A stretch of DNA of 64,000 bases from Candidatus Saccharimonadales bacterium. GTDB lineage: Bacteria > Patescibacteriota > Saccharimonadia > Saccharimonadales > Saccharimonadaceae. The notes below the pieces were generated by a model. It was not told the origin of the DNA. It worked only from the letters and a program-made list of their open reading frames with translations, and did no database searches. Below are positions 19,702 to 62,514 of the stretch, piece after piece. Made by a program: the position numbers and the translations under genes. The stretch lies in NCBI GenBank assembly GCA_049295575.1, contig JBAQQX010000003.1, positions 35,519 to 99,518 on the forward strand, read 5' to 3'. How positions within the stretch are numbered: the stretch's first letter is position 1; every line of letters begins with the position of its first letter.

Positions 19702-19862
19702 ATTACATTAGCGTACTCGCGCATGTTTATAATGACAAGCATAACTTTCATCAGCAACGGAAATGACTTCTATTCGTTTCGCTCTTTATGGAGCTCGTCA
19801 GCAAAATGACATAATTTTGGACGAATAGTTGAAATAGATAGAAAGACAGGATTGCCAGTGAT

Positions 19863-19901
19863 GGCCTGCAACATTCCGAAAACTCCGGAATGTTGCAGGC
19901 C
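19863..19901. repeat. Perfect 16-bp-stem hairpin
   Basis: ggcctgcaacattccg (19863-19878), a 7-nt loop, then cggaatgttgcaggcc (19886-19901). No U-tract on either strand. Confidence 0.8.
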
Positions 19902-19935
19902 GCATCAACCGACGCTGCTATAGCTCGATGGACGA

Positions 19936-20130
19936 CTACGGACGTCCGATGAGAATATCAACGGAACGACCGATGCGCAACTGACGCCGAACGGTTTCTT
20001 CGTTCGGCACGTTGACGCCATCGACCCAATGCTCTTTGCACTCCTGACCTACAAGGACCAGCCAAGTGTGCGGCCGAGCGTAGGAGGAGGTGTTGCGGTA
20101 GGTGAACTGCTTTGCCACTGTATGCTCCAT
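19936..20130 (-). CDS. Hypothetical 64-aa protein inside the IR-bounded insert
   Basis: MEHTVAKQFTYRNTSSYARPHTWLVLVGQECKEHWVDGVNVPNEETVRRQLRIGRSVDILIGRP has globular-looking composition but no SD. A competing 47-aa ORF (ATG 20192) in another frame has a strong SD (GAAGGAGAATGC-ATG). Confidence 0.3.
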   Translation of the reverse strand: MEHTVAKQFTYRNTSSYARPHTWLVLVGQECKEHWVDGVNVPNEETVRRQLRIGRSVDILIGRP

Positions 20131-20327
20131 CTTGACGGGCAACAGCCTGAGACCATCCCAGGTGGGCCCGTCAGTAGTCTAAATACATCCATGCATTCTC
20201 CTTCTCTTCGATCTATCTATTTCAATGAACTCTCATCGTATCTGACGACAAAAGCTTTGCGATAATAACACGTAATAATATGCACGTCAATAGTCTCACC
20301 CCTGTTTCATATATAACAATTTAATAG

Positions 20328-20352
20328 CCCCGCAGCCATTACAGCTGCGGGG
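20328..20352 (-). terminator. Terminator hairpin after the 144-aa gene
   Basis: ccccgcagc / gctgcgggg, a 9-bp GC-rich stem, 8 nt past stop codon 20360-20362. An A/U-rich tail follows on the minus strand. Confidence 0.55.
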
Positions 20353-20359
20353 TTCTCTA

Positions 20360-20794
20360 TTAAGTAGCGACGACACTAGCACGGGTTGTCTGGAGAAGAT
20401 AGATGACATATTGGACGACATCTAATTCTTCTTCAAACTCCTCAGAGTCACGCGGGTGAAGCTTATTAGATCTTCCTCTCATCCAAATACGTGCTGAGGT
20501 ATCGAGACAAAAGTTTGATCGACCAACGGGTTTTTCGTCAAGCGGAAAGATGATACGCCTCTTGACCTCATCACCTTTTGGCGCCAGGACAGATACTGTG
20601 CGAGATTTATCATCCCACACACCGCTATCAAACAACCAGACACGGGTCTCTTCAGCTTCTGCTTGTAGGCGATCGAGGAGCCAACGCGCGCCACCGATTT
20701 GGACAATAACTGCCCGGCCCCATGGCCGCTGCCTCTCCTCGTTATAGCGATAGGAGGCGGCAACTAGCAGCTTAAGGTGCTCGTTAAAATCCAT
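20360..20794 (-). CDS. Hypothetical protein (144 aa)
   Basis: Strong SD GGGAGG 5 nt before the ATG. No recognisable motif. Confidence 0.55.
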   Translation of the reverse strand: MDFNEHLKLLVAASYRYNEERQRPWGRAVIVQIGGARWLLDRLQAEAEETRVWLFDSGVWDDKSRTVSVLAPKGDEVKRRIIFPLDEKPVGRSNFCLDTSARIWMRGRSNKLHPRDSEEFEEELDVVQYVIYLLQTTRASVVAT

Positions 20795-20910
20795 TCCAAC
20801 CTCCCATATATGTCGTGCTTCTCATAGAACTCCTCTGGATACGGAAGCATAGCTTGGCCGACCAAAAGTAAGCCTATCATATCCTATAATCAAGCGTGTC
20901 GCAAGCGGCC

Positions 20911-20919
20911 TGCTATACT
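20911..20919 (+). promoter_or_regulatory. Extended -10 box for the wHTH gene (leaderless-type spacing)
   Basis: TGCTATACT, 8 nt before ATG 20928. Confidence 0.5.
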
Positions 20920-20927
20920 AGTCTCAT

Positions 20928-21596
20928 ATGCTTGATCATCACATCCAACGTTCTATTGTCTACCAACTCGCCTTTGAGCCCAGTATGCGATTTGGAGAGC
21001 TTAAACCTGATGATATCGACAATAAGCTATTCACCTATCACCTCAAAAAAGTCATGGCAGCTGGCTACGTCGCAAAGAACGACGATGGGCTTTATATACT
21101 TACGTCCGAGGGACGTCGCATAGGCGCTGGCGCCCTGAAGAGCGAACACCGCCTCATTGATCGTGCATATTCCACCCTCCTCTTGGCAATTCGCCGTAAG
21201 CATGACGGCGCCTGGCTTCTCTACCGACGAAATACTCATCCGATGATTGGTCTAGCGGGGTTTATGCACGTGCAACCGGTAGTAGATATGCCCAGCACGG
21301 AGATTGCACGTCTGGAATGTCGAGACAAAACTGGTCTTGACGGAGAATTCAGCGTTCATGGCCATGGCTATTTTCGCGTATATGACAAGGACCAGCTCGA
21401 AAGCTTTATTCATTTCACGCTCCTTGTTTGTGACGACATCCACGGCGAACTGACACCGAACAACATACTTGCCGATTACTTCTGGGAGATGGCGCCCGAC
21501 TTTAGTGCACCGCACATGCTACCGAACATGCAGACCCTCCACGAACTATATACTGGACCGTCAGGCGCATTTACTGAGCAAACATTTCATCTTTAA
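20928..21596 (+). CDS. Winged-helix DNA-binding protein with an uncharacterised C-terminal domain
   Basis: The N-terminal 70 aa (IQRSIVYQLAFEPSMRFGELK......FTYHLKKVMAAGYV.KNDDGLYILTSEGR) fit the MarR/ArsR-type wHTH pattern. The C-terminal ~140 aa are unassigned. Confidence 0.6.
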   Translation: MLDHHIQRSIVYQLAFEPSMRFGELKPDDIDNKLFTYHLKKVMAAGYVAKNDDGLYILTSEGRRIGAGALKSEHRLIDRAYSTLLLAIRRKHDGAWLLYRRNTHPMIGLAGFMHVQPVVDMPSTEIARLECRDKTGLDGEFSVHGHGYFRVYDKDQLESFIHFTLLVCDDIHGELTPNNILADYFWEMAPDFSAPHMLPNMQTLHELYTGPSGAFTEQTFHL

Positions 21597-22354
21597 ACAG
21601 TGCGCGGATAGTCTTCGATTGCTTCTTCGTAGGCTTCGAAGGCACCGTTTGGCGCGTTGCGGCGCCAGTAGACAGCAAGATCGCTATTGGGATCGGCCAA
21701 TTGAGCAACTGACGGATGTGAGCCGACCTGGTCACCAAAGACACGAGCTTGTTCGAGCATCGTGAGCGATGCTTCGCGTGCTAAATTCTGAACGTCAAAC
21801 GGACTATATGAATCCGCCACTGTACCAACTTCGGCGCAGGCAAGCTGAAGCGAGACATTCCCAAGTTGCCGACCAAGTTGCTGTTGGTGACGAGCCGTGG
21901 AGCGGCGCTCTACTTTAGTTGCAACAAGCGCCTCTGCGATCGTTGCCGCCTCGACAAGTCCCTGCTGCGCTTTTGTAAGCAAGCCGCTTTTCGATTCACG
22001 CCAATCCGACTCTTCGTCAGCGAGCGTCGGAAGATTAAGGCGACGACGCATTACAGGCGAATGCGCAGCGTAGTTATACCAGCCAGCATTTAGCCCGCTC
22101 ATAGCAATTAATGTGCCGGCAAATGCCACATCCTCCGGCTGCTCGACAGATCGCATAATCTGATGGGCGATAGATAGGCCATCACGCTGATGCTCGGCAA
22201 GAAGCGTACCGCTTGGTAGTGAGCGTCGTCGTTCTATTTCAGTCATTGAGCGTGCTCGTTCAGGGACATAATGACGATCGTCAAGGTGTTGTTTAGGTAG
22301 GTCAAAATTTCGATAAGGTTTATTCATACTTCTACTATGTGCCACGCGACACAT
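21593..22354 (-). CDS. Hypothetical protein (253 aa; alternative start ATG 22327)
   Basis: Long ORF convergent with the wHTH gene, with a 4-nt overlap. No recognisable motif. ATG 22354 directly abuts the upstream terminator, so Met10 may be the true start. Confidence 0.5.
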   Translation of the reverse strand: MCRVAHSRSMNKPYRNFDLPKQHLDDRHYVPERARSMTEIERRRSLPSGTLLAEHQRDGLSIAHQIMRSVEQPEDVAFAGTLIAMSGLNAGWYNYAAHSPVMRRRLNLPTLADEESDWRESKSGLLTKAQQGLVEAATIAEALVATKVERRSTARHQQQLGRQLGNVSLQLACAEVGTVADSYSPFDVQNLAREASLTMLEQARVFGDQVGSHPSVAQLADPNSDLAVYWRRNAPNGAFEAYEEAIEDYPRTV

Positions 22355-22383
22355 AAAAGCAGTGAAGACTTTTTCACTAAGTA

Positions 22384-22848
22384 CTAGGCGCGTTTCAATG
22401 GGACTTTTTTGAGCGGACGAACAGTACTTGCAATACTAATAGCTACGGCGATGAGTACGACGTTCTTAATGATATATTGTCCTTCGAGTGACGGAACGAA
22501 TGGATACATCCACACCATATCAGCGAGTAGCACAAGCGGTGAACAGACAAGAACCATGTGCCCGACCATGACGGCAATTGCAAGCCGAGTAAGCTTCGGG
22601 AATAAGAAAAGCAGTCCGATAATACATTCAATAATTGCCAGTGTAAGATAGAGCGGATCAAACCAATCAGCACCAACTGTTCGCAGTGTCAGTGCTTCGG
22701 CCAGTGGCGTTGCCGGGCTCAACCCCAAGACCTTTAAAATACCGAACCAAAAGTAGACGACAAAAAGGCTACCTCGTGCAAGTGGCGTGTACCATTTTTG
22801 AAACCAGTGAATTAACTGAAGATCGACGGCTTCAATATGCTTTTTCAT
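22384..22848 (-). CDS. Small four-TM membrane protein, DoxX/DUF417-like
   Basis: 154 aa with four hydrophobic helices. Family assignment is tentative. -10 TATACT (22862-22857) lies 8 nt before the ATG. Confidence 0.45.
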   Translation of the reverse strand: MKKHIEAVDLQLIHWFQKWYTPLARGSLFVVYFWFGILKVLGLSPATPLAEALTLRTVGADWFDPLYLTLAIIECIIGLLFLFPKLTRLAIAVMVGHMVLVCSPLVLLADMVWMYPFVPSLEGQYIIKNVVLIAVAISIASTVRPLKKVPLKRA

Positions 22849-22904
22849 CTGATTAAAGTATAGCTGATGTACTCAGATATGTCATTGTACTTATGCTAAG
22901 TCAG

Positions 22905-23810
22905 CTAGGCGGTTGCGCCGATTTTAGCATTTTCACGACACATATCGGCGTGGAACAAAAGATCAGGATTCTGCTTACAGTTCAAGCAGATAAGAACAAG
23001 GTCGTTACAATTTGCCCAGGCGCAGTTTTCGAAGTTAGCCGTTGGACCTTGGCAATGAGTACACTCGCCAATTGTCTTAGCATGATCACTAAAGTCAATC
23101 GTCATGCGATCATCAAAGACGCGCAAACTTCCTTCCCATAGTCCGTCATCGCCATACGCCTCACCGTATTTCACAATACCGCCATCAATTTGGTAGACTT
23201 CACTGAACCCACGCTTTTTCATCATAGCGCTAATAACTTCGCAGCGGATGCCACCAGTACAGTACGTGATTATCTTTTTGTTTTTAATATCATCATACTT
23301 ATCACTTTCAAGTTCAGCGATGAAGTCACGTGAGGTATTCGTATTTGGCACCACGGCGTTCTTGAACTTACCGATCTTGGCCTCATGCTCGTTACGACCA
23401 TCGAAGAAGATAACGTCGTCACCGTACTTCTCAACTAGTTCATGAACTTGATGCGGCTTAAGATGCTTGCCGCCACCAATAACGCCGTTTTCGTCAACGT
23501 CAAATTCATCGTCGCTATTTTTAAACCCAACAAGTTCACGTCGCGCTTTCACGCTCATACGAGGGAAGTCCTCGCGGCCACCATCGCTCCATTTGAAGAC
23601 AACATCCTTAAAGCCGGCAAATTGTTTCGTTGCCTTAATATACGCCTTGAGATCATCCATCTCACCGCCGACCGTACCGTTAATGCCATGAGGGCTCACA
23701 AGAATACGGCCCTGAAGATTTAGGCTATCGCATAATGTCTTTTGCCATAGCTTCATCGTTCCCGGATCATTGATGGGCGTAAATTTATAATAAAGTAGAA
23801 TTTTTTGCAT
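22905..23810 (-). CDS. trhO: Rhodanese-domain tRNA uridine(34) hydroxylase TrhO (YceA/UPF0176)
   Basis: ILLYYKF..I.DP N-terminus, rhodanese active-site loop YCTGGIRCE, and a C-terminal Cys-rich tail. Confidence 0.85.
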   Translation of the reverse strand: MQKILLYYKFTPINDPGTMKLWQKTLCDSLNLQGRILVSPHGINGTVGGEMDDLKAYIKATKQFAGFKDVVFKWSDGGREDFPRMSVKARRELVGFKNSDDEFDVDENGVIGGGKHLKPHQVHELVEKYGDDVIFFDGRNEHEAKIGKFKNAVVPNTNTSRDFIAELESDKYDDIKNKKIITYCTGGIRCEVISAMMKKRGFSEVYQIDGGIVKYGEAYGDDGLWEGSLRVFDDRMTIDFSDHAKTIGECTHCQGPTANFENCAWANCNDLVLICLNCKQNPDLLFHADMCRENAKIGATA

Positions 23811-23818
23811 CGTTACCT

Positions 23819-23824
23819 ATTATA
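23819..23824 (-). promoter_or_regulatory. -10 box for trhO (leaderless-type spacing)
   Basis: TATAAT on the minus strand, 8 nt before ATG 23810. Confidence 0.45.
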
Positions 23825-23945
23825 CTATATAATTACGTTTACTATGACCCCCATGGGTCCTCTATACGCAGACGTTTGGACGACCAAACCAATAGCGATA
23901 TCAATCTTGATATAAAATTATTATCACCCACACTAAAGGAGGTTT

Positions 23946-25712
23946 ATGCCTACTACACATTCATCAAAACGTATCGTCGGCTTTCTGTTCGGCTTATGGC
24001 GCGTTGCACCGGCTGCCAGCTGGTCAATGATCGGCACGCAGATTGTCTTTTCTGCGCTGACAACAACCATTGCGCCGATATTCGTCTCTCAGCTACTTAC
24101 TCGCATTGCGAGTGGTTCGGCCACGCTTCATGACAGCATGGGGCTATTAATTGGCTATGCTATCATTCTTTTTCTCGGAGATGTCGTAGCTGTCCGTGTC
24201 ACTATTGCCCTTGCCTTTATAGCAGAAACAAAAATGCAAGCAGCGGTCTCGACGCAAATCTTGTCACACCTAACTGCCAAGAGCCTTGGTTATCACGCTG
24301 ATCGCATGAGTGGCGGCACCGTATCAGACACGACAAAGTTAGTCGGTAGTGTTGAGCGGTTCTGGGACACATTAATCTTTACCGCCGTGCCAATTACGAC
24401 CACGATCATTTCCGTTTGTATTGCTCTGTCTTTCCTTTTCTGGCAGTATGCTGTCGTTCTCGCTGTTTTGTCGATTATTATTATCTTTACGATCATCAAA
24501 GCCCAGACCGCCATTGCCCCTATTAGCCGAAAATCATCTGAAAAATTCAGTGCAGCTACCGCCTATCTCGCCGACGTCGTTAGTAACATTACGACCGTCA
24601 AAGCCTTTGCTCGCAGCACCCACGAACATGCCGAGTACGGCAAGCGCATTAAAGTATGGCGTAAAGCATCAATGAAAGAAATGAAGAGCGTTCTTATTAT
24701 CACTGGATCGTTTGGCGCGATGATGACTGTCATGAATATTAGCGCCCTGCTTGCAGCTGTTCTTGCGACCGAGTATCACCTGGCGAGTATCGGCGTCACC
24801 TATCTTATGATCGTCTACACCCTAAACGTCGTATCGCAGCTATGGGCCGTATCGAGCACGACTCGCGCCTATCAGCGTATTCTTGGTGACGCTGGTCCGA
24901 TGATCAGCACGCTCGATGATCCGATCGAACTAAAAGACCCAGAATCACCTCAGCCTCTTGTTGTCTCAAAGGGTAAGATTGATTTTGACAATATTACCTT
25001 CACGCATGCTGAAAATGACGACGCTCTGTTTAAAGACTTTACTCTTACGATTGCACCTGGTGAGCGCATCGGCCTTGTTGGACGCTCAGGCTCAGGCAAA
25101 ACCAGCCTGACTCGTCTCCTGCTTCGTTTCAACGATATCGAAAATGGTGCTATCACCATTGACGATCAGCCAATTAACCAAGTTACCCAAAATGACCTAC
25201 GCCAAACAATTGCCTACGTCGCTCAGGAACCCGTACTATTCCATCGTAGCCTGCGGGATAATATCGCGTATGCAAATCCTGATGCTACTGATAAGCAAAT
25301 TGAGCATGCCATTCGTCAGGCTAATGCCTACGATTTCATCCAGAAGCTGCCCAAAGGCCTCGATACGATCGTTGGTGAGCGTGGCGTAAAACTAAGTGGC
25401 GGGCAGCGTCAGCGTATTGCAATTGCTCGTGCAATTCTAAAGGACGCACCGATTCTCGTCCTTGATGAGGCGACCAGCGCGCTTGATAGCGAAAGCGAAA
25501 AGCTAATTCAGGATGCACTCAAGCATCTGATGAAAAACCGTACGTCGATCGTTATTGCCCATCGTCTATCAACTATCGCCAGTCTTGATCGCATTATCGT
25601 TCTCGATAATGGTCAGATTATTGAGCAAGGCTCACATAGTAATCTTCTTACAAAGAACGGTATCTATGCCAAGCTTTGGAATCACCAATCTGGTGGATTT
25701 ATCGAAGAATAA
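23946..25712 (+). CDS. ABC exporter, fused permease/ATPase (MsbA/type I exporter fold)
   Basis: Six-TM N-domain, Walker A GRSGSGKTS, signature LSGGQRQR, Walker B ILVLDEATSALD. SD AAAGGAGG. Confidence 0.9.
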   Translation: MPTTHSSKRIVGFLFGLWRVAPAASWSMIGTQIVFSALTTTIAPIFVSQLLTRIASGSATLHDSMGLLIGYAIILFLGDVVAVRVTIALAFIAETKMQAAVSTQILSHLTAKSLGYHADRMSGGTVSDTTKLVGSVERFWDTLIFTAVPITTTIISVCIALSFLFWQYAVVLAVLSIIIIFTIIKAQTAIAPISRKSSEKFSAATAYLADVVSNITTVKAFARSTHEHAEYGKRIKVWRKASMKEMKSVLIITGSFGAMMTVMNISALLAAVLATEYHLASIGVTYLMIVYTLNVVSQLWAVSSTTRAYQRILGDAGPMISTLDDPIELKDPESPQPLVVSKGKIDFDNITFTHAENDDALFKDFTLTIAPGERIGLVGRSGSGKTSLTRLLLRFNDIENGAITIDDQPINQVTQNDLRQTIAYVAQEPVLFHRSLRDNIAYANPDATDKQIEHAIRQANAYDFIQKLPKGLDTIVGERGVKLSGGQRQRIAIARAILKDAPILVLDEATSALDSESEKLIQDALKHLMKNRTSIVIAHRLSTIASLDRIIVLDNGQIIEQGSHSNLLTKNGIYAKLWNHQSGGFIEE

Positions 25713-25743
25713 AAAATAGCTGCCGAGTGGCAGCTATTTTTTT
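25711..25743. terminator. Bidirectional rho-independent terminator (ABC exporter / bL25)
   Basis: aaaaa-atagctgcc-gagt-ggcagctat-ttttttt. Confidence 0.8.
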
Positions 25744-25754
25744 ACTCATATAAT

Positions 25755-26492
25755 TTACTTATTGGCGTCAACGTTAGATTGCTTTGGCTCTTTTTGATCT
25801 TTGCCACCTGGGCGAGATTCTTCAGCCTGTGTATCTTGGCGTGTATCGCTACCGTTATCGGCTTCGATATCAGCAACATCGTCAATCTCGGCGTCACCAC
25901 CAGCTGCATCATTCGCCGCCTGCAGTGCGCTTGGTTCGTAGACGTTAGCAATCACAAGATCCATATCCTGTTCATGATCGGCAAATTCAACACCGCTAGG
26001 CAGCGTTAAGTCGGCAATCGTCAGCTTGTCATCGGCGTCGGTAAGGTCGAGAATTGAAATCTCTAGTACATCCGGAAGGTTTGCCGCAATCGCACGAACT
26101 TCAACGTGCTCAATAGCCTGAAGGACGACAAGTCCAGCTTTTTCAGCCGCACTTTCACCTTCGCCAACCAGACGGATTGGCACTTCAGTCACGATCTTCT
26201 CGTTCTGCTTAATAGTATGGAACGCAACATGTCGTACGAGATGCTTCACTGGATGCATATCAATTGATTTGATAATAGCGAGCTTCTTCTTGCCATTAAT
26301 TATAAGATGAACTGGCGTGTGCTTACCAGCACTCCGCGCAACCTTTGTCGTCTCTACGAGTGACGACTGTGTCACTAGTGGCTCGGCATGGCCGCCGTAG
26401 ACAACACTTGGTACAATGTCTTGGTTTCGTAGCGTCGCAACCTTTTTGCCGCTTATACTACGTTCATCTAATGTTAATGTAATATCGTTCAT
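25755..26492 (-). CDS. rplY: Ribosomal protein bL25 (Ctc form) with acidic C-terminal extension
   Basis: RN.D.VP.V.YG and .H.V.H..FH motifs. SD AAGGAG. Confidence 0.88.
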   Translation of the reverse strand: MNDITLTLDERSISGKKVATLRNQDIVPSVVYGGHAEPLVTQSSLVETTKVARSAGKHTPVHLIINGKKKLAIIKSIDMHPVKHLVRHVAFHTIKQNEKIVTEVPIRLVGEGESAAEKAGLVVLQAIEHVEVRAIAANLPDVLEISILDLTDADDKLTIADLTLPSGVEFADHEQDMDLVIANVYEPSALQAANDAAGGDAEIDDVADIEADNGSDTRQDTQAEESRPGGKDQKEPKQSNVDANK

Positions 26493-26559
26493 GTTCTACT
26501 CCTTAATCTGATCTCAGTCGTTTGTAGTACATCTCCTATTATAGCACTATGCCCGTTCG

Positions 26560-26568
26560 TGCTAGAAT
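26560..26568 (+). promoter_or_regulatory. Extended -10 box for the DedA gene
   Basis: TGCTAGAAT. ATG 26572 is only 3 nt downstream, too close to be transcribed. ATG 26578 is 9 nt downstream. Confidence 0.45.
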
Positions 26569-26577
26569 GAGATGAGT

Positions 26578-27288: not shown

Positions 27289-27302
27289 AACTACCGGCTC
27301 AT

Positions 27303-27338: not shown

Positions 27339-27362
27339 TAGAGTATTACTACTATAGATTGC

Positions 27363-35210: not shown

Positions 35211-35527
35211 TGCATTCTGATGATTACGAATTATCGTTCTCCTGCCGCTCGTATTACTACAAGGGCGTCTACCTTACTTTGTCTTTCTTCTCGCAAATAG
35301 AACGGGGTACGTTGTCGACCGATTATTTAATTAGTATTAGGTAAAAAGTTCTTTTCGGTACCCGTGCGACATTTATTGGCAGGCTCATTCATGATTCACA
35401 CTTCCCACTCGCGCATGCAGTCGTTGACTGACATTTAGTAGCTGAAGTCATAAATGTGCTTATATAAGTGTATCAATTGTTGTAAAATAAGTCAATTTAT
35501 TTTATAAAATGTTTATTTTGTCAAATA

Positions 35528-55067: not shown

Positions 55068-55092
55068 AATACTTACGTTTAGTGTATCCTAA

Positions 55093-56319: not shown

Positions 56320-56348
56320 GAGGGCCCACCCTTTTAGTTATTCTGGTT

Positions 56349-57767
56349 CTATTCTAGCACGCGCACTTTAATTGTGTCGGTCGCACCGATGAGTCCAGGC
56401 TGGCGTCCGCTAACGATCGCAACGGTTGCTGTTGCCTGGTCGCCAAAGAAGCCTTCGTCTTTTAGCTCACGAGCAATATCAAGACCAGCACGTTCGCCGT
56501 CCGGGCGAACAAAGCTGCGGTTGGCGTAGTTAAGCGCGAGCTGCTGGGCAGCGCGATCACTACTGGTCACGCTAATAATTGGAAGGTTGGGGCGGTGACC
56601 GGCAATATTAGCCGCAGTTGAGCCAGATTTTGTCTCGGCGACAATGGCATCAACTTTTAGCTGAACAGCAAGACTGACGGCAGCGGCGCTAATTGCGTCC
56701 TGCTGAGCATTCTTACTGTGAATTTCATCGTGGATCGGGGCAACTGAAGCGTTATCTTGTGTAAACAAGATGACTTTCTTCATAGCTGCAACGGTCTCAA
56801 GTGGGTACTGACCGTTAGCTGTCTCATCTGAGAGCATTACGGTGTCGGCGCCCTGGATAACAGCGTTAGCAACGTCGCTCACTTCAGCACGGGTTGGTTC
56901 AGGGTTATCTACCATGCTTGCCATCATCTGAGTCGCAACGATGCTGAGCTTACCGTGCTTACGGCAAAGCGCAATAATACGGCGCTGTACGATTGGCACT
57001 ACTTCAGCACCAGCCTCAACCGCAAGGTCACCACGAGCCACCATGACACCGTCGCTCGCTTTAACGATTGCTTCAAGCGCATCAGGCTTAATTGCAGCCT
57101 TCGTCTCGATCTTTGAGATAATCTGCGCATCAGAACCAAGACTAACAAGGATTTGGCGAAGGTTGTTGATGTCATCAGCGCTCTGTACGAAGCTAAGAGC
57201 AACGTAGTCGATGTCTTTTGTTGCACCATACTCAACATCTTTGATGTCTTTTGGTGTCAGAATATCACCACCGAAGTCAGTATCAGGAAGGTTAATACCC
57301 TTCTTGCTCATAAGCGTACCGTCATTTTCAACGCGGAGCTTAATCGCTGTTGCTGATGGAATTTCAACTACAGTCGTACGGATCTTACCGTCAAAGATGT
57401 AGATTGGCTCGCCAACCTTTACCTTCTCAGCTAGATTGTACTGAACTGGAAATACCATACCGTTATGTTCAGCGGCGTGGTCAAGAATGATTTCATCGCC
57501 TTTTTTAACGCTGACATTTTCGTTGAGCATTCCAAGACGAATCTTTGGACCTTGAAGATCCTGAAGGATTGCGACTGGCTTGCCGATCTTTGCAGATGCT
57601 TGGCGAATCCATGTAATCTGATCGTCACGCTCACTGTAGTCACCATGACTAAAGTTAAGACGGAACCCATTAACGCCAGCAAGCGCTAGCTGTTCGATTG
57701 TTTCAGGGTTGCTTGTTGGAGGCCCAAGCGTAGCCAATATTTTTGTACGTTTAAAAATAACACTCAT
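56349..57767 (-). CDS. pyk: Pyruvate kinase
   Basis: KILATLGP, NFSHG, MVARGDL. ATG 57767 is preferred (TGGTACAAT 7 nt upstream); the track ORF starts at TTG 57791. Confidence 0.93.
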   Translation of the reverse strand: MSVIFKRTKILATLGPPTSNPETIEQLALAGVNGFRLNFSHGDYSERDDQITWIRQASAKIGKPVAILQDLQGPKIRLGMLNENVSVKKGDEIILDHAAEHNGMVFPVQYNLAEKVKVGEPIYIFDGKIRTTVVEIPSATAIKLRVENDGTLMSKKGINLPDTDFGGDILTPKDIKDVEYGATKDIDYVALSFVQSADDINNLRQILVSLGSDAQIISKIETKAAIKPDALEAIVKASDGVMVARGDLAVEAGAEVVPIVQRRIIALCRKHGKLSIVATQMMASMVDNPEPTRAEVSDVANAVIQGADTVMLSDETANGQYPLETVAAMKKVILFTQDNASVAPIHDEIHSKNAQQDAISAAAVSLAVQLKVDAIVAETKSGSTAANIAGHRPNLPIISVTSSDRAAQQLALNYANRSFVRPDGERAGLDIARELKDEGFFGDQATATVAIVSGRQPGLIGATDTIKVRVLE

Positions 57768-57774
57768 GAATTCA

Positions 57775-57783
57775 ATTGTACCA
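57775..57783 (-). promoter_or_regulatory. Extended -10 box for the pyk-pgk-tpiA operon (leaderless-type spacing)
   Basis: TGGTACAAT on the minus strand, 7 nt before ATG 57767. Confidence 0.5.
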
Positions 57784-57820
57784 CTCCTCAACTACTGATT
57801 AGAAAAAAGGAGAGTAATCG

Positions 57821-58306
57821 TTACCAGCCCGTTGCTCCACTCGACCAGTACCCCCAGGCGCCGGCTGCATTGGCAGGAGGACGCGCTGGATCAGCAAGGC
57901 TATTGTTTGTTCGCTGGATAGTCGGTAGGCCCGAGGCTGGCGAGAATCGAATCAGCTTATAGTCAGTACCATTTGATGTATATAGATAACTATTATTCGC
58001 GCTTGGATCACTTGGCATTTGAGGAATAGAGGCAGCGAATGTCGGCACGATACCAGGTATGAAGTTAGCCGCCTGACTCCAGCCTACCCATGAGCCACTA
58101 CCACCCGTACTTGGATACTGGCTATTGGCCGCATAGTACAGCTGAATCATTTTATTAATGGCATTCATATCTGCCTGCTCGCGGCTGAACTTTGACCGTT
58201 CCTGGATGCCGTTATATGCAACGATAGTGATGGCGGCAAGGATACCGATAATAACAATCACGATCAGCAGTTCAACGATCGTAAATCCTTTTTTATTACT
58301 CTTCAT
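57821..58306 (-). CDS. Type IV pilin-like protein
   Basis: MKSNKKGFTIVELLIVIVIIGILAAITIVAYNGIQ. Start trimmed to ATG 58306. Confidence 0.85.
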   Translation of the reverse strand: MKSNKKGFTIVELLIVIVIIGILAAITIVAYNGIQERSKFSREQADMNAINKMIQLYYAANSQYPSTGGSGSWVGWSQAANFIPGIVPTFAASIPQMPSDPSANNSYLYTSNGTDYKLIRFSPASGLPTIQRTNNSLADPARPPANAAGAWGYWSSGATGW

Positions 58307-58326
58307 AAATAAGCTCTTTCTATTTA

Positions 58327-58902
58327 TCATACTGATACCCAGCATGACGTAATACCACCCCCGGATGAAGTCCATGGATTGGGTGAGGTAATAAATGCGT
58401 TTTCTTCTCCTGGTAGCGGTGCCGAGTCACCGATAACGACGTTCGACAGCTGACATGTCTGGCTATCCCCCTTGAGCCAGTACATGATGAGGCCCGGGAT
58501 CGCTTCGTGATTATAGGTTCGCGGAGAATAACCATCAAAGTAGATGCCATATTTATTACTGGCCGTCGCTGGCACACTCGTTGCTGGCGTGCCTATCTTA
58601 CGAAGTTCACTCAACCATGAAGTATTGTTCGAACTTACAGCAGTCGAGTTATAGTTCACGCAGGAGTTATCAACCGTCAAGCAGTAGCCCCCTAGACTTG
58701 GATACGAGCCATACGTTGCCTTGTAAGATTTGATTAGGTTAAACGTATTTCGCGCACCAGCCACAACCGCGCTGTTATTCGCCCGCTGCTGGATACCGTT
58801 ATATGCGACGACAGTAATCGCCGCAAGGATGCCGATAACGACAATGACAATAAGAAGCTCGACGATCGTGAAACCGCCCTGTCTTTTTCGAACTACATTC
58901 AT
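58327..58902 (-). CDS. Type IV pilin-like protein
   Basis: RKRQGGFTIVELLIVIVVIGILAAITVVAYNGIQ. Confidence 0.85.
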   Translation of the reverse strand: MNVVRKRQGGFTIVELLIVIVVIGILAAITVVAYNGIQQRANNSAVVAGARNTFNLIKSYKATYGSYPSLGGYCLTVDNSCVNYNSTAVSSNNTSWLSELRKIGTPATSVPATASNKYGIYFDGYSPRTYNHEAIPGLIMYWLKGDSQTCQLSNVVIGDSAPLPGEENAFITSPNPWTSSGGGITSCWVSV

Positions 58903-58908
58903 AGCCTG

Positions 58909-58917
58909 ATTTTACCA
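58909..58917 (-). promoter_or_regulatory. Extended -10 box for the pilin pair (leaderless-type spacing)
   Basis: TGGTAAAAT on the minus strand, 6 nt before ATG 58902. Confidence 0.5.
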
Positions 58918-59374
58918 TAAGCGGTACCACCTACCATGCCCCTAGGCACCTTACATATCCTACAAGCACATACCAACATCCTATCTGTCTACTTACCGCG
59001 ATATCTTTATTTGATCTGCACTCACTATCTTTATATTTATTAAGGTTCTTGTAGTGATGTTTCCTTTTAGTTTATTAAAGTTGATAACTTACGTATTACC
59101 ACTGGCTTCTATACATCCTTTTTATTTCCATCTTCTTCCGCCCATTCCTTCACTCTCTATATATTCATATATAAAGAGAGAGTAAATTAGGTAAATTAAC
59201 AGATACAATAGAGTAGATTTTACCTGCAGCGGGGTGCAGGTAAAATAACGGTTATCTGTATGCCGCTATTGAGCAGATGAAGAGAATAAATGAGCTTCAA
59301 TAACGGGCAGTTACATGATCATTTTTATTACTGCGCTCAGTAACGTCACTGTTCGGAGAATATATTTTTACATA

Positions 59375-59401
59375 GAAAAAACGCCACTCCAAGGTGACGT
59401 T
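59375..59401 (-). terminator. Rho-independent terminator after tRNA-Glu
   Basis: Minus strand AACGUCAC-cuugga-GUGGCGUU (one G.U pair), followed by UUUUCU. Confidence 0.6.
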
Positions 59402-59408
59402 CTTTCTA

Positions 59409-59483
59409 TGGTGATCTCACGGAGAATCGAACTCCGATTGCCAGGATGAAAACCTGGTGTCCTAACCGTTAGACGATGAGACC
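59409..59483 (-). tRNA. tRNA-Glu (anticodon UUC), CCA encoded
   Basis: Minus strand: GGTCTCATCGTCTAACGGTTAGGACACCAGGTTTTCATCCTGGCAATCGGAGTTCGATTCTCCGTGAGATCACCA. Confidence 0.93.
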
Positions 59484-59499
59484 ATGTTTAACTCGGATG

Positions 59500-59508
59500 A
59501 TTATAGCA
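59500..59508 (-). promoter_or_regulatory. Extended -10 box for tRNA-Glu
   Basis: TGCTATAAT on the minus strand, 16 nt upstream of the mature tRNA 5' end, preceded by a T-run. Confidence 0.55.
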
Positions 59509-59614
59509 AAAAAATAAGCCGCTGGCTAGGGTTATAGGCATAAATCAAACATATATCTTTCTGCCGCTATCTGGCATAAAGCTTGTGTTATCTATGGTTA
59601 TATGTTCTAAAGCA

Positions 59615-59643
59615 TTGACATTTTAGCCTATTTGTGGTAAATT
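59615..59643 (+). promoter_or_regulatory. Near-consensus sigma-70 promoter (P1)
   Basis: TTGACA, a 17-nt spacer, then TAAATT with TGG immediately upstream (extended -10). The nearest plus-strand CDS starts ~400 nt downstream at 60052. Confidence 0.55.
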
Positions 59644-60051
59644 TAATACATCACTGGTGAGCGAGGTGTGCGAGGTGGCTGACAGGTTACCTAGAGCTAT
59701 TACTCATCAAGTATGGGAACGTTAATAATCAGGTTATAACTTATTGTACTAACGTACATGTAAGTGCGGCCATAAGCACATAATTCACCCCTTTCTTTAA
59801 TTGTGTCTTTTTGGCTGCACTTGCAGCCGTTTAAGCATGTCCGCTCTGCGAGTGTCGATATCTTAAACGAGTACGTGAAATACGAAGAATTCAACAGGAA
59901 GTTTTCTCCGATAGGAGTGGCACAGTAGTCTGGTTATCCAACAAGGCTAGCGTGCCACTCCCATCATTCCCCGCAAAGGAGATGTGGCAGCTTTGGGCAT
60001 ACGCCTATCGCTTACTCGTCCCCTCGTGGGGAACAAACAAGGAGAAATACC

Positions 60052-61020
60052 ATGGAAAACAACACCGCACGCCAGCGACTCCTCAACATCCTCGGCGACA
60101 AGGAAAACAGTGCCGGTTCGGCAGTTGTCGACTTTGTCTCCGAGAGGTTGGAGGGCGTTGTCGATAAGATTGATGCCTTGATCACCGAATACAACGAGAC
60201 CAACAAACAGGCTCTCGCTCTGAAGGCTGACAAGGCGGACATCGACGAGATGAACGGTCGTCTTGCTGCAGCAGCCGCCGCCCTCACGGGTGCAGTTACT
60301 GCACGAGACACTGCCAAGCAGTCTGTTCACGCCAACCCCGCTTCGGCGAAGGAAAGCGTCGACCAGGCCGAGGCAGTAACCAGCCAAGCGGCCAAAGCAG
60401 TGTCCAATGCCACCCTTACCCTTGAATCGCTCAACGAGCGGATCGAGAGCCTTGAGGACTGGCGAACGAACACTGTCAATCCAACGCTCGCACAGCACAG
60501 AAGGTGGATCGAGGAGCTGCAGCAAAATGCAGGCCTCACTCCATCGGGCGACCAGCCCGCGACCGCCGAGGAACACGTCGCCTCGCAGTCAGTTCACCCG
60601 CCAACGCAGGTGCAGCCGACTGTCGAACGACGCCTCGAGGAACGCGAAGTTGTACGCACCCACTTCATGGACCGGACCGTTGACATCCGTCACTGGTCCG
60701 GTATGCAGTGGGCATGCGCGCTCATTCTGGCGATCGTCTTCATGTTCTGGCTCGGTCCCATCTTTTCGGAGTGGGCCCGCAGTGTACTACAGGGACACGC
60801 CTGGGACTGGGTCACTAACGTGATGCGGTTCCTTGGGTGGATCATCGCCCTCGCGATTGGTTTCTGCCTCGGTGGCGTTATCGGCACTTTGCTCGACAAC
60901 GCCATCAACAGCAGCAGCAGCGCAGCGCGACGTGAGGAGCGTGAATATCACGGCCACCACGTCGCGCACGACGATGGGCACCACAACGTCCGTGCGGACG
61001 AGCTTACCCACGCAAGGTAA
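60052..61020 (+). CDS. Hypothetical coiled-coil protein with two C-terminal TM helices and a His-rich tail (322 aa)
   Basis: SD AAGGAGAAATACC-ATG. Ala/Glu/Lys-rich heptad-like N-half, TM segments WACALILAIVFMFWLGPIF and FLGWIIALAIGFCLGGVIGTLL, tail HGHHVAHDDGHHN. The antisense 209-aa ORF is treated as a GC-rich shadow. Confidence 0.6.
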   Translation: MENNTARQRLLNILGDKENSAGSAVVDFVSERLEGVVDKIDALITEYNETNKQALALKADKADIDEMNGRLAAAAAALTGAVTARDTAKQSVHANPASAKESVDQAEAVTSQAAKAVSNATLTLESLNERIESLEDWRTNTVNPTLAQHRRWIEELQQNAGLTPSGDQPATAEEHVASQSVHPPTQVQPTVERRLEEREVVRTHFMDRTVDIRHWSGMQWACALILAIVFMFWLGPIFSEWARSVLQGHAWDWVTNVMRFLGWIIALAIGFCLGGVIGTLLDNAINSSSSAARREEREYHGHHVAHDDGHHNVRADELTHAR

Positions 61021-61156
61021 CACTTGCAGGGTGTGGAGATGCGTGCGTCAAATACGCAGGCTCAGCACTCAAAGTGCACACACCCACTGGTTGCATACAT
61101 ATCGCAACCCCTGACTCGCATGGCGCGAGCAGGACGAGGCCAAGAAAGGAAGTAAA

Positions 61157-62284
61157 ATGGCTTCTTCAAAGAAACGCTGGACCAATGGACTTATTGGTTC
61201 TATTGCAGCACTTGGGGTATGGGCCTTGCTGGTTCTTGGCTTCGGCCTGGCAACCGCCAACGCTCCTCGCTCCGAAGCAATAGCAAGTCCCTCAGCAACC
61301 GCAACTCCGTCGGCCACGGGGACCCCCACACCATCTGATGTCTGTGAAGCTCGGTTCGTTCAAGAACCCGATGCCCACGGCGACGATGGCAAGGTCGATG
61401 CAGGCTTTACGGCTGCCTACAACAAGAAAACCGCTGGCAAGTCCGGTGCAGATCTTGCAGTAGCACAGCGTGAAGTTCTGCTCGAGCGTGCTGGCGTTAA
61501 CGCCAAGCGTCTTGCAAGCTGGGCATACGCCAACGGCCTCCACAAAGACCCCAACGATTGGAAGGGTCTGGTGAGCGCTGACGGCAAGTGCCTCTCAACA
61601 GCAGGCATGATGCTGCATAGCAAGCTCGAAGGAGCACTCAAGGGCAACGGAGTTAACTTCTCCGAAGTCCAGGCTCCCGACAATGGGTACAACAGCGGTG
61701 TTGTCGATGGTTCGTTTGTTGTCGCGGAACGTCCGGGAATTGTAAGTGATCACAAAGCAATGCTGATCACCTACCCGAACGGTACAAAGGTATACATTCT
61801 TGTATACTGCGGCAACGTGATATTCCCTGCCCCTCCGGCAGGTGTACCGACGAGTCCAAAGATTCCACAGCCCGAAAAGCCCGTCCCTCCGGCAAACACC
61901 CCTCCGGTCACTGACTGCACGGCAACTCCAACGTTGCCCGAATGTCTTGCTCCGAAGACAGGGAATTGGATCGCTCCAACCCCTGGAGGAGACGGTACGA
62001 CCGACAGCGAAGGCCAGTGGCAGCAGTATGGACCCGGTGAATTTACCGGGTCTACGCCACCACAGGTAGTTACTCAGCAGCCTGGCGCAAGTAGTGGCGG
62101 CACTGTCGTTGACAGCGCTACCAAAGCACCTAGCAGCGAGACCGGAGGCCAAGCCCCCGGTGCTACCCAGGAAGTAAAGCCTTCCAAGCCGGCTGAAACT
62201 GGCGCCAATGATCCAACGGTCCAAAACCCGGATCAGCCAGAAGTTGGCGGCAACGATGGTCATATTGATAACCCGTTTGGGTAA
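61157..62284 (+). CDS. Hypothetical N-terminally anchored secreted protein with Ser/Thr/Pro linkers (375 aa)
   Basis: SD AAAGGAAG. TM/signal anchor LIGSIAALGVWALLVLGFGLA, linker SPSATATPSATGTPTPS, a Cys-containing central domain and a Pro-rich C-terminal third. Confidence 0.6.
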   Translation: MASSKKRWTNGLIGSIAALGVWALLVLGFGLATANAPRSEAIASPSATATPSATGTPTPSDVCEARFVQEPDAHGDDGKVDAGFTAAYNKKTAGKSGADLAVAQREVLLERAGVNAKRLASWAYANGLHKDPNDWKGLVSADGKCLSTAGMMLHSKLEGALKGNGVNFSEVQAPDNGYNSGVVDGSFVVAERPGIVSDHKAMLITYPNGTKVYILVYCGNVIFPAPPAGVPTSPKIPQPEKPVPPANTPPVTDCTATPTLPECLAPKTGNWIAPTPGGDGTTDSEGQWQQYGPGEFTGSTPPQVVTQQPGASSGGTVVDSATKAPSSETGGQAPGATQEVKPSKPAETGANDPTVQNPDQPEVGGNDGHIDNPFG

Positions 62285-62296
62285 GTCGTAGATCAC

Positions 62297-62332
62297 GAGT
62301 GGTGCTCGGTTGAGTCTAACCGCGCACCACTC
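62297..62332 (+). terminator. Long hairpin after the second cassette gene
   Basis: gagtggtgc-t-cggtt gagtct aaccg-c-gcaccactc (14 bp plus one mismatch), 13 nt after the TAA. Only a weak T-rich tail follows. Confidence 0.5.
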
Positions 62333-62514
62333 AACGTGCCTTCTTCGTATTTCACGGAATATTCTCCGAGGAGTTCAGTTTTCCGTTCGAGCGTTACTGC
62401 TCACGATGCAACTGATCTCCTCGAGATCACCCTTCTACACTAAGTTATAATCTGATTTTTCCCATAGCGATGTATATTAATAATTCGGCTTGCACACATC
62501 TTAAAGCATAAGCA

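Follow-up and report, generated by a model that had tools for sequence, protein, structure and literature searches.

Layout of the two elements

Two pairs of perfect inverted repeats bracket GC3-rich orphan genes in the window, a 64,000-nt stretch of a Candidatus Saccharimonadales contig. In element 1, TTGAAATAGATAGA at 19829-19842 recurs as its perfect reverse complement at 20212-20225 (14 nt, spacing 369 nt); in element 2, CGTGAAATACGAAGAA at 59874-59889 recurs as its perfect reverse complement at 62341-62356 (16 nt, spacing 2451 nt). Both pairs are as an earlier note on this DNA had described them, and so is the shared order of parts: an arm, one or more SD-led ORFs, a strong hairpin and, a short distance on, the distal arm. 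Element 1 reads on the minus strand.

20262..20290, minus strand: predicted sigma-70-like promoter, TTGACG, 17-nt spacer, TG-n-TATTAT; predicted start near 20256; kept in the related loci L012, L014 and L015
20228..20256, minus strand: 12-bp hairpin at the predicted RNA 5' end, present in the MFE structure
20212..20225, minus strand: 5' arm, UUGAAAUAGAUAGA, with an SD (20198-20205) 7 nt downstream
20192-20049, minus strand: SD-led 47-codon frame, overlapping the start of the 64-aa ORF
19936..20130, minus strand: cargo, a 64-aa ORF, GC3 0.66, matching no known family
19863..19901, minus strand: perfect 16-bp hairpin lacking a U tract, with two compensatory pairs among relatives; the 3' arm follows after 20 nt
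19829..19842, minus strand: 3' arm, UCUAUCUAUUUCAA
19771..19827, minus strand: type III hammerhead ribozyme motif (Rfam RF00008), beginning 1 nt past the 3' arm
19120..19701, minus strand: 193-aa ORF with no family assigned, downstream of the hammerhead

The 5' arm of element 1 starts about 30 nt from the predicted transcript start. In the 5'-terminal hairpin ahead of it, 100% of cells are paired across four sequences; four one-sided changes each keep pairing through G.U, and its four G.U pairs exist on the minus strand only. A stretch of 115 nt around the start region is 100% conserved. The 64-aa ORF, gene-called in two compost assemblies, differs between the window and L012 by 7 synonymous and 3 non-synonymous changes with its stop codon retained, and its structure model has a pLDDT of 61. 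Together with ORF1 of element 2, it holds the top two GC3 values among 60 genes (mean 0.48, sd 0.06). The elements had been described as GC-rich islands; their interiors are GC-rich, but this composition is that of the coding sequences (ORF1 and the 64-aa ORF).

The window's hammerhead scores 41.5 bits (E 3.5e-8) and that of L012 46.1 bits, below the RF00008 gathering score of 48.5. Its core nucleotides are complete, and helix II changes from GCUC/GAGC in the window to GCCC/GGGC in L012. Activity as a ribozyme is inferred for the motif; cleavage is predicted after GUC, between 19820 and 19819, 9 nt beyond the 3' arm. The literature searched yielded no earlier account of a hammerhead in Saccharibacteria. 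The 193-aa ORF probably shares the primary transcript, and the variable segment, with element 1.

Element 2 lies on the plus strand.

59615..59643, plus strand: predicted promoter, TTGACA, 17-nt spacer, TG-n-TAAATT, kept in relatives
59648..59828, plus strand: conserved leader RNA of ~180 nt, its 3' end a terminator-like hairpin (59813-59828) with a short U run
59829..59868, plus strand: hairpin H5, immediately ahead of the 5' arm, with three pairs changed on both sides (RNAalifold)
59870..59873, plus strand: invariant AGUA, abutting the 5' arm
59874..59889, plus strand: 5' arm, CGUGAAAUACGAAGAA
59890..60051, plus strand: structured 5' UTR (RNAalifold on 6 loci: 53 pairs, of which 6 show compensatory changes)
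60052..61020, plus strand: cargo ORF1, 322 aa, GC3 0.70
61157..62284, plus strand: cargo ORF2, 375 aa, of a rare family with 11 clusters
62297..62332, plus strand: strong hairpin lacking a U tract; the 3' arm follows after 8 nt
62341..62356, plus strand: 3' arm, UUCUUCGUAUUUCACG
62363..62427, plus strand: conserved hairpin H3, ~65 nt with internal loops, directly past the 3' arm and GAA

Because ~225 nt of leader, including the terminator-like hairpin, precede it, the 5' arm of element 2 is not at the primary 5' end. Neither the leader RNA nor H3 matched the Rfam families searched. AGUA is unvarying in 6/6 loci that cover it, as is GAA (62357-62359) in the five loci with a 3' arm and in the related locus L016; by their letters, the two fit the AGUA/GAA consensus of a putative sarcin-ricin (loop E) motif (PMC1865062). 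The 5' UTR has a fold z-score of -7.65, and in the consensus fold UUUCUCC (59903-59909) pairs with the SD AGGAGAA (60040-60046). The translation of ORF1 has an N-terminal coiled coil and C-terminal hydrophobic segments that are probably membrane-spanning, and that of ORF2 has a hydrophobic anchor or signal at its N-terminus and a Pro-rich tail. Block-mean pLDDT is mostly 73-95 in the core of the ORF2 model (~residues 61-240), for which no PDB fold matched at E<0.001. The hairpin at 62297..62332 has wholly different letters in each lineage and is a hairpin in every one, while in H3 changes are visible by eye from CGAGGAG.UCAGUU/AACUGA.CUCCUCG to AGAAGAUCAAUC/GAUUGAUCUUCU. In L016, ORF2 is just 50% identical, yet the 3' arm differs by one base (TTCTTCATATTTCACG) and H3 is nearly unchanged too.

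Conservation and folding of the arm repeats

We compared 145 pairs of distinct intergenic regions separated by <6 kb for their longest complementary match. The arm pairs rank first and second and are the sole outliers, the next best match being 11 nt. In shuffled intergenic sequence, the maximum was 14 nt in 1/200 and 16 nt in 0/200 shuffles, and no single shuffle gave two matches of 14 nt or more (0/200). The TGAAATA shared by the arms of both elements is confirmed, as is the inner AGAA. The window shows no excess of the 7-mer itself (13 copies, with 9.7 +/- 3.0 expected), and two random intergenic 14- and 16-mers would share a 7-mer with a chance of ~1-2%. GAGT[TA]C, which had been noted ahead of both arms, precedes only the sense-strand 5' arm in each element. 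In element 1 one extra base separates it from the arm (GAGTTC-A-TTGAAATA against GAGTAC-GTGAAATA in element 2), and there it lies inside the 5'-terminal hairpin.

Homologous metagenome loci supplied only a few independent lineages, five distinct ones for element 2 and four sequences for element 1. In the element 2 helix, 96.3% of cells are paired, and double changes affect 3/16 pairs (A-U/G-C, C-G/U-A and G-C/A-U/G.U); controls with the register slid gave 39-50% paired and zero double changes. The TGAAATA core itself becomes TGAAGTA in 3/5 of these lineages, with the partner arm compensating. Position 10 of the element 1 helix passes from A-U through A.C to G-C, and positions 11 and 12 become U.G and G.U. 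Shuffle controls place this covariation as only moderately extreme (13/500 and 8/500). One-sided changes within the arms are not clearly strand-specific (three of G.U type against two of A.C type, by our own classification), so the arms taken alone do not exclude a strand-symmetric constraint at the DNA level. The sense-strand context is RNA-like, with the G.U-rich 5'-terminal hairpin, the SD sequences and the hammerhead abutting the 3' arm, and H5, H3 and the 3' hairpins flanking the arms covary.

Folding of the predicted transcripts favors arm-arm pairing in both elements. The predicted pair probability of the arm helix is near 1.0 both in the 0.44 kb RNA of element 1 (3' arm range 0.65-1.0) and in the 2.6 kb RNA of element 2 (3' arm range 0.73-1.0), under energy models that under-penalize very long-range pairs and ignore translating ribosomes. 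Forcing the 3' arm to be single-stranded would cost 12-14 kcal/mol in element 1 and 18 kcal/mol in element 2. MFE structures contain the complete arm helix for a 499-nt RNA of element 1 and, in 4/5 lineages, for the ~2.6 kb RNA of element 2; in the fifth, it appears as two segments, 10 bp and at least 4 bp, separated by a small internal loop.

Possible roles of the arm helices

A chance origin of both repeats, and of the likeness between them, is next to negligible. Other perfect inverted pairs of 14-17 nt do lie within window ORFs (I4, I19), and the shared 7-mer is common; against this, intergenic shuffles almost never yield one such pair and never two, and the arms are conserved in relatives while changing in a compensatory way. 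Chance is already refuted as the source of the helices, although the resemblance between the two may be accidental (P about 0.01-0.02, post hoc). The main reading of the earlier note, in which the arms would be the terminal inverted repeats of a single cassette family handled by one recombinase or transposase, is largely refuted and now seems very improbable to us. Perfect repeats around genes of atypical GC3, the position of element 1 in a variable hotspot, that of element 2 close to tRNA-Glu and adjoining variable segments, and the rarity of a 7-mer common to both arms all speak for it, and matched arm changes could in principle mean that one protein recognizes both ends. However, both elements lack target-site duplications, and a degenerate scan for the arm motif gave no hits in the window beyond the four arms and none in related loci beyond the homologous arms. 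The cargo genes were not found in GTDB species genomes or IMG/VR, and 0/7 proteins tested (the cargo and the immediate neighbors of element 1) matched a recombinase. Element 2 occupies an identical chromosomal locus in all relatives. For both elements, sequence conservation in relatives runs through the arms and beyond into the flanks. The TGAAATA core is not conserved. Genomes without element 1 break at ~20318 and ~19097, 93 nt and ~730 nt outside the arms, and their replacement cassettes carry no such arms. TIR-bounded transposable elements, MITEs and integron cassettes likewise have short inverted repeats flanking cargo of atypical composition, but here there are no target duplications, multiple copies, transposase or integrase, or attC-type site, and the repeat boundaries differ from those of the presence/absence polymorphism.

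The compensatory changes in both helices, their high predicted pair probability and the RNA-like context instead bear out the alternative that the earlier note had offered, namely pairing of transcript ends; its interpretation is in this sense partly supported. That the arms function as an RNA helix, whatever its role, we consider very likely. We propose, with somewhat better than even confidence, that each element is a transcription unit whose mRNA is looped by a helix between its 5' UTR and 3' UTR, which serves as an end-clamp. Given the predicted transcript boundaries, one arm would sit in each UTR, and their pairing, through 14 bp on the minus strand in element 1 and 16 bp on the plus strand in element 2, would close the whole message into a loop. 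Both units would present a hairpin and then the 5' arm, a strong hairpin without a U tract and then the 3' arm, and immediately past it a structured domain of a processing type. This domain would be the type III hammerhead in element 1, predicted to cleave 9 nt beyond the helix, and the invariant AGUA/GAA junction with the conserved 65-nt hairpin in element 2. The clamp would hold the mature 3' end beside the 5' end and would guard both termini and the 5' UTR against exo- and endoribonucleases. By fixing the ends and shielding the termini, it may uncouple the message from the downstream cistron.

Two other roles for an RNA helix have to be weighed against the end-clamp. The arm helix could be a long-range stem, comparable to those flanking 16S and 23S rRNA, at which RNase III or a similar enzyme excises the mRNA from a longer transcript. 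Coaxially stackable hairpins flank the helix, a separate leader RNA comes first in element 2 and places the 5' arm ~225 nt into the primary transcript, and the invariant AGUA/GAA junction resembles a protein-recognition feature. Helices of 14-16 bp are nevertheless short for RNase III, and element 1 has its 5' arm near the predicted start and already has its own predicted ribozyme to form the 3' end; we regard this reading as unlikely. We are more doubtful about a translational lock or switch akin to the hok fold-back or the icaR 3'-UTR/SD pairing, in which the message would be inert until processing or a signal. The icaR precedent (PMC3868564), the 7 nt between the element 1 5' arm and the SD, the pairing of the element 2 SD with the upstream UUUCUCC, and the fully conserved 115 nt around the element 1 start region would suit such a lock, but in both elements the arms leave the SD and start codon uncovered. 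The 64-aa product also lacks the character of a hydrophobic toxin, and no antisense RNA gene was evident, without a specific search.

Comparison with known systems

The mRNAs of hok/sok-type type I toxins carry a small ORF, pair their ends (tac/fbi fold-back), are compact and stable, and depend on 3' processing. Element 1 resembles them in the predicted pairing of both ends of an mRNA with a small ORF, but its cargo is not a small hydrophobic toxin, the arms have no visible control over a translational activator element, and an antisense partner was not identified, again without a dedicated search. In Staphylococcus aureus, pairing between the 5' UTR and 3' UTR controls icaR: the SD region is bound by the 3' UTR, so that translation is blocked and a site for RNase III arises (Ruiz de los Mozos et al. 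2013, PMC3868564). The likeness is that UTRs of one bacterial mRNA pair intramolecularly, whereas the arms described here are placed upstream of the SD, which they leave free.

Hammerheads between genes of bacterial and prophage operons have been proposed to process transcripts into single-gene mRNAs (Perreault et al. 2011, PMC3088659). The element 1 motif is likewise of type III and intergenic, in a probable two-gene transcript and in a variable, possibly foreign segment. Those ribozymes usually flank a gene on both sides, whereas here a single ribozyme lies 1 nt past a long-range helix that would hold the 3' end left by cleavage at the 5' UTR. The Bacillus subtilis hbs mRNA, which is small and highly structured, has a 14-bp helix between its 5' and 3' UTRs that modulates RNase Y cleavage (Braun, Durand and Condon 2017, PMC5737220), and control of ribonuclease access to the leader was proposed there. 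The arm helices are similar in length and in joining the two UTRs over a long range, without homology; the host here is a Saccharibacterium, and an equivalent function is suggested by analogy. They differ further in being accompanied by a 5'-terminal hairpin and a strong 3' hairpin without a U tract, and in the addition of a self-cleaving ribozyme motif in element 1 or a conserved junction and hairpin in element 2, whose helix bridges 2.45 kb with two genes.

The inverted repeats and the units they bound

Both of the perfect inverted repeats that an earlier note had reported are present where it placed them. In element 1, read on the minus strand, the arms are TTGAAATAGATAGA (19829-19842) and its reverse complement (20212-20225); in element 2, read on the plus strand, they are CGTGAAATACGAAGAA (59874-59889) and its reverse complement (62341-62356). 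From a rough gene map we took every pair of different intergenic regions no more than 6 kb apart (145 pairs) and looked for complementarity between them; no matches were longer than those of the element-2 arms (16 nt) and the element-1 arms (14 nt), the next best being 11 nt. Across 200 shuffles, a maximum of 14 nt was reached once and 16 nt never, and two matches of at least 14 nt occurred jointly in 0/200. A perfect 17-nt inverted repeat, AAGCAGTGGCTGCAGGA (7000-7016 and 10355-10371, 3.3 kb apart), also exceeds the chance length for the window; both of its copies lie within ORFs.

Features of the two elements (H5 and H3, element-2 hairpins before the 5' arm and after the 3' arm)
20290-20262, minus: element 1, promoter-like site
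From the predicted transcript start, minus: element 1, 12-bp hairpin, then the 5' arm, then the SD
20130-19936, minus: element 1, 64-aa ORF, then a perfect 16-bp hairpin, then the 3' arm
19827-19771, minus: type III hammerhead ribozyme motif, 1 nt beyond the element-1 3' arm, between the 64-aa and 193-aa genes (copy in the homologous locus L012, 3036-3091)
59615-59643, plus: element 2, predicted promoter
59648-59828, plus: element 2, leader RNA of ~180 nt behind the strong promoter, with a terminator-like hairpin (GGCUGCA..UGCAGCC and a short U run) at its end
After the leader, plus: element 2, H5, AGUA, 5' arm, 160-nt structured 5' UTR, ORF1 (322 aa), ORF2 (375 aa)
3' side, plus: element 2, strong hairpin, 3' arm, GAA, the 65-nt hairpin H3, then the strong promoter of the next gene

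The internal order is as the note described it, namely arm, SD-led ORF or ORFs, strong hairpin and a distal arm after 20 nt (element 1) or 8 nt (element 2), and the further resemblances it drew between the elements hold in part. The interiors of both are GC-rich, but this richness is that of the coding sequence itself: among 60 genes (mean GC3 0.48, sd 0.06), ORF1 ranks first at 0.70 and the element-1 64-aa ORF second at 0.66. The proposed TGAAATA core is present in both window elements but is not fixed, with TGAAGTA in three element-2 lineages and a compensating change in the partner arm, and the bare 7-mer is not enriched in the window (13 copies versus 9.7 expected). Two random intergenic 14- and 16-mers have a 7-mer in common in 1-2% of trials. 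GAGT[TA]C, said to precede the arms, is found before the sense-strand 5' arms but only those, and is shifted by one base in element 1.

Searches of the cargo against Pfam, PHROGs, PADLOC and NCBIfam returned nothing except coiled-coil noise, and in the AlphaFold model of ORF2 the core is confident, with no significant match in the PDB. Neither the ORF2 family nor the 64-aa protein was found in GTDB species genomes (185,579) or in IMG/VR; a search for the window's own ORF2 found no existing record, and a JGI metagenome scan yielded one near-identical compost contig. Among 5.8 billion proteins, the ORF1 family comprises 6 clusters and the ORF2 family 11. Cargo GC3 (60052-62284 and 19936-20130) is 0.58-0.74 in every lineage examined, compared with ~0.43-0.48 for the genome, and stays high in lineages that retain only ~40-70% protein identity, a pattern suggesting either that the genes are of ancient foreign origin and have not ameliorated or that mRNA composition is under selection.

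Because changes between the window and L012 within 20130-19936 show a synonymous excess (7 synonymous, 3 non-synonymous) and the stop codon is kept, the 64-aa ORF is, judged by its substitutions, a real gene. Its product is hydrophilic, with beta-beta-alpha-beta elements predicted in a low-confidence structure model. The ORF itself has no obvious SD; the strong element-1 SD leads a 47-codon frame (20049-20205, minus) that overlaps its start. A 115-nt stretch around this frame and the 64-aa start shows 100% identity among four sequences whose divergence elsewhere reaches 12%, which dual coding, a leader peptide or RNA structure could explain. Elsewhere the window carries type IV pilin-like genes and clear matches to the MDR-NUDIX RNA motif (23841-23898, plus, 70 bits) and the lysM-TM7 RNA motif (35239-35384, minus, 116 bits), the latter described in the TM7 (Saccharibacteria) phylum (PMC5737381) and so an indication that the window comes from a Saccharibacterium.

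Conservation and pairing of the arms

We compared the element-1 locus through five homologues of the upstream 144-aa gene. Element 1 is present in L012 (87.5% identical over the alignable 1.17 kb) and in the short compost contigs L014 and L015. In L010, L011 and L017, ~20317-19097 (promoter, element 1 and 193-aa gene) is swapped for other genes; the breakpoints lie just past the upstream gene's terminator and past the 193-aa gene, 93 nt and ~730 nt outside the arms, and no comparable arms surround the replacement genes in these three loci. The segment forms a variable hotspot (~19097-20317) between the conserved 144-aa gene and a YitT-family membrane gene.

Occupants of the hotspot in loci lacking element 1
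L010, 2290-5220: two small ORFs, Ku and a UvrC/GIY-YIG-like gene
L011, 4480-5130: SPW-family membrane protein
L017, 950-1258: another membrane protein

Element 2 occupies one conserved chromosomal locus, since the gene pair and its neighbors are kept in relatives: each contig encoding ORF1/ORF2 carries the same pair followed by the same 486-488-aa gene, and the two long contigs resemble the window in having PGK, PK and a tRNA upstream. Variable genes near element 2 are found upstream of the promoter and not at the arms. A tRNA-Glu lies just upstream (59409-59483, minus; L001 2733-2804, L004 2736-2807), with three small genes (~161, 36 and 141 aa) between it and the promoter in L001 and L004 and pilin-like genes on its far side in the window; bordered by variable segments, it resembles an integration hotspot. 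The element-2 leader, by eye ~95% identical across loci as against 58-86% identity of the proteins, is a candidate sRNA or riboswitch-like attenuator. Rfam searches at E up to 5-10 gave no match for this leader, the 5' UTR or H3.

These comparisons bear on the note's preferred reading, a single family of cassettes handled by one recombinase, which our data do not support. We find no target-site duplications (flanks GACGAATAG and TGAACTCTC for element 1, AACGAGTA and GAATATTC for element 2), no extra copies, no empty sites, breakpoints outside the arms, and no recombinase domains in proteins inside or beside the elements. A degenerate arm motif matched only the four arms in the window (zero mismatches) and only homologous arms in 17 loci. 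We rejected a TIR transposon or MITE because element 2 is syntenic in all relatives, conservation is undiminished at the arms, and the presence/absence boundaries in L010, L011 and L017 fall outside them. An integron cassette was set aside, as the repeats flank the genes on both sides, there is no single imperfect palindrome and no array is found at the elements. A hok-like type I toxin-antitoxin mRNA is at odds with the hydrophilic 64-aa product, which is not a small hydrophobic toxin, and a retron msr-msd with the protein-coding stretch between the arms and with the neighboring 193-aa and 144-aa ORFs, which have no RT or other Pfam match.

The alternative offered in the note, pairing of the 5' and 3' transcript ends, is supported by compensatory changes in both helices. 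The element-2 arms are found in every locus that covers them, and their sequence varies.

Element-2 arms in homologous loci
Window: 5' CGTGAAATACGAAGAA, 3' TTCTTCGTATTTCACG; pairing perfect
L001: 5' CGTGAAGTATAAAGAA, 3' TTCTTTATACTTCACG; pairing perfect
L006: 5' CGTGAAGTATGAAGAA, 3' TTCTTCATACTTCACG; pairing perfect
L004: 5' CGTGAAGTATGAAGAA, 3' TTCTTTATACTTCACG; one G.U
L008: no simple 16-mer; 10 bp, a 2x1 internal loop, 6 bp

Over five distinct sequences, pairing holds in 96.3% of cells, and both partners have changed in 3/16 pairs. When the register is shifted by 1-3 columns, pairing falls to 39-50% and no double changes are left; 13/500 column shuffles reach the observed covariation score. 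The element-1 arm helix is paired in 96.4% of cells over four sequences: the window and L012 have A-U at position 10, where L014 has A.C and L015 has G-C; position 11 changes to U.G and position 12 to G.U in L012; and one terminal pair is lost in L015. Covariation thus scored rests on 4-5 lineages per helix. The hairpins of element 1 are likewise maintained, with 100% pairing in the 5'-terminal hairpin, where each of four one-sided changes is still paired through G.U, and two compensatory pairs among relatives in the 3' hairpin. In element 2, the untranslated elements are, by these alignments, more constrained than the proteins, because L016, with an ORF2 only 50% identical, keeps the 3' arm, GAA and H3 almost unchanged; its hairpin before the 3' arm has a wholly different sequence and the same shape.

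Folding of the predicted transcripts, which the note had suggested, favors arm-arm pairing (ddG 12-18 kcal/mol). The element-1 helix is part of the minimum-free-energy structure of a 499-nt RNA, alongside the hammerhead fold, and the element-2 helix is part of that of the ~2.6-kb RNA in five lineages, interrupted by the internal loop in L008. Under models that ignore ribosomes and kinetics, pair probabilities are ~1.0 along both helices (0.65-0.87 at terminal pairs), and keeping the 3' arm unpaired carries a penalty of 12-14 kcal/mol for element 1 and 18 kcal/mol for element 2. Relative to predicted promoters, SDs, ORFs and 3' hairpins, the arms sit as expected of 5' UTR and 3' UTR, the transcript ends being predictions.

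Compensatory changes in the arms could in principle also arise through one protein that recognizes both ends, and the one-sided arm changes, three G.U-type versus two A.C-type by our own classification, leave the strand undecided. We accordingly dropped G.U strand asymmetry as proof of RNA for the arms (3 vs 2); it is valid only for the element-1 5' hairpin. The argument for RNA is carried by sense-strand features around the arms: a 5' hairpin rich in G.U pairs, hairpins that covary, an SD paired with an anti-SD, and the ribozyme. It is because of these surrounding features, and not the arm changes alone, that we consider the arms very probably to act as an RNA helix.

The hammerhead motif and the element-2 junction

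The hammerhead at 19771-19827 is the only ribozyme match in the window. It scores 41.5 bits against Rfam RF00008 (E 3.5e-8, with 171 nt searched), and the L012 copy scores 46.1 bits (E 6.1e-7 for the sequence searched); both values are just below the gathering score of 48.5. The core is complete in the alignment (GUC triplet, CUGACGAG and CGAAAC), and helices I and II are capped with helix III open, the type III arrangement. Helix II changes from GCUC/GAGC in the window to GCCC/GGGC in L012, a compensatory change, and the motif is otherwise invariant over four sequences. Loops I and II could form a pseudoknot in the window (UAUG/CAUA); L012 has not kept it, and we do not claim it. The predicted cleavage site lies between 19820 and 19819; cleavage there would end the 64-aa message 9 nt past the arm helix and free the 193-aa cistron carrying the ribozyme fold at its 5' end. 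The hammerhead and conserved leader DNA patterns were not found in IMG/VR, and the literature searched yielded no report linking hammerheads to Saccharibacteria.

We recognized no ribozyme equivalent after the element-2 3' arm. H3 (62363-62427), directly 3' of the arm, is a conserved 65-nt hairpin with conserved internal-loop bases. AGUA (59870-59873) is invariant in 6/6 loci covering it, GAA (62357-62359) is invariant in six (five with the 3' arm, and L016), and both lie directly against the C-G end of the arm helix. AGUA opposite GAA beside a Watson-Crick pair is the sarcin-ricin/loop E consensus (PMC1865062), which the junction fits by sequence. This suggests that the three-way junction formed by H5, the arm helix and H3 may bind a protein or make a tertiary contact. 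We rejected a split hammerhead at this junction, as CUGANGA and GAAA are missing. Shortly past the 5' arm, UUUCUCY (59903-59909) pairs with the ORF1 SD (60040-60046) in the consensus fold of six loci, and the element-2 ribosome-binding site is therefore predicted to be sequestered.

A proposed end-clamp and its precedents

As to the specific role of the helix, the reading with the most support, which we consider somewhat probable, is that the arms serve as an mRNA end-clamp. The 5' and 3' UTRs would pair, hairpins outside each arm would stack on or guard the helix, and the 3' end would be made right beside it, in element 1 by the hammerhead. Such a clamp might shield the termini and leader from ribonucleases and uncouple the fate of the message from that of its downstream neighbor. 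The arm helix may instead be a processing stem that is itself cleaved, or it may be a translational lock.

The two elements have much of this design in common: a hairpin leading into the 5' arm; a strong hairpin that lacks a U tract, followed by a spacer and the 3' arm; a structured domain directly 3' of that arm; purine-rich 5' and pyrimidine-rich 3' arms; and GC3-rich genes that match no known family. No homologous leaders, junctions or 3' domains were found between elements 1 and 2. Common descent of the two designs is possible; the chance of sharing a 7-mer is ~1-2%, judged post hoc, and the 7-mer varies in relatives. We offer as a long shot that this is a reusable 'self-packaging mRNA' design for acquired GC3-rich Saccharibacteria genes. 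The design would combine hairpins on the 5' and 3' sides with a 5'/3' clamp and, right after the clamp, a cutter acting in cis; in element 2 the AGUA/GAA three-way junction, H5 and H3 would be an undescribed equivalent of the hammerhead, either a self-cleaving motif of a new type or a site for a dedicated nuclease. If so, the clamp would license cleavage to give trimmed, closed-loop, long-lived messages, and UGAAAUA in both elements would reflect the common descent of the design.

To our knowledge, long-range 5'/3'-UTR pairing has been demonstrated experimentally in only a handful of bacterial mRNAs, and never via covariation in uncultivated lineages. The clamps proposed here would be two such cases, independent of each other and backed by evolutionary evidence, from an episymbiotic bacterium of ultra-small size; one spans 2.45 kb and two genes, and the other is coupled directly to a hammerhead. 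They also carry a warning that when perfect inverted repeats flank genes of atypical composition, the repeats can be RNA structure and not transposon ends.

The nearest precedent for the arm helices is the hbs mRNA of B. subtilis, in which a 14-bp 5'/3'-UTR interaction modulates RNase Y cleavage (PMC5737220). A second is icaR of S. aureus, where the 5' and 3' UTRs pair and, unlike here, the 3' UTR covers the SD (PMC3868564). Hammerheads between genes of bacterial and prophage operons have been proposed to cut polycistronic RNA into gene-length messages (PMC3088659). Coupling of clamp and ribozyme would give these long-puzzling operon hammerheads a concrete, testable role, in which the 3' end they make would be tucked at once into a protective helix, separating the fates of neighboring cistrons. 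Relative to these systems, the novelty here would lie in a ribozyme placed directly against a clamp that covariation supports, and in a clamp reaching across 2.45 kb.
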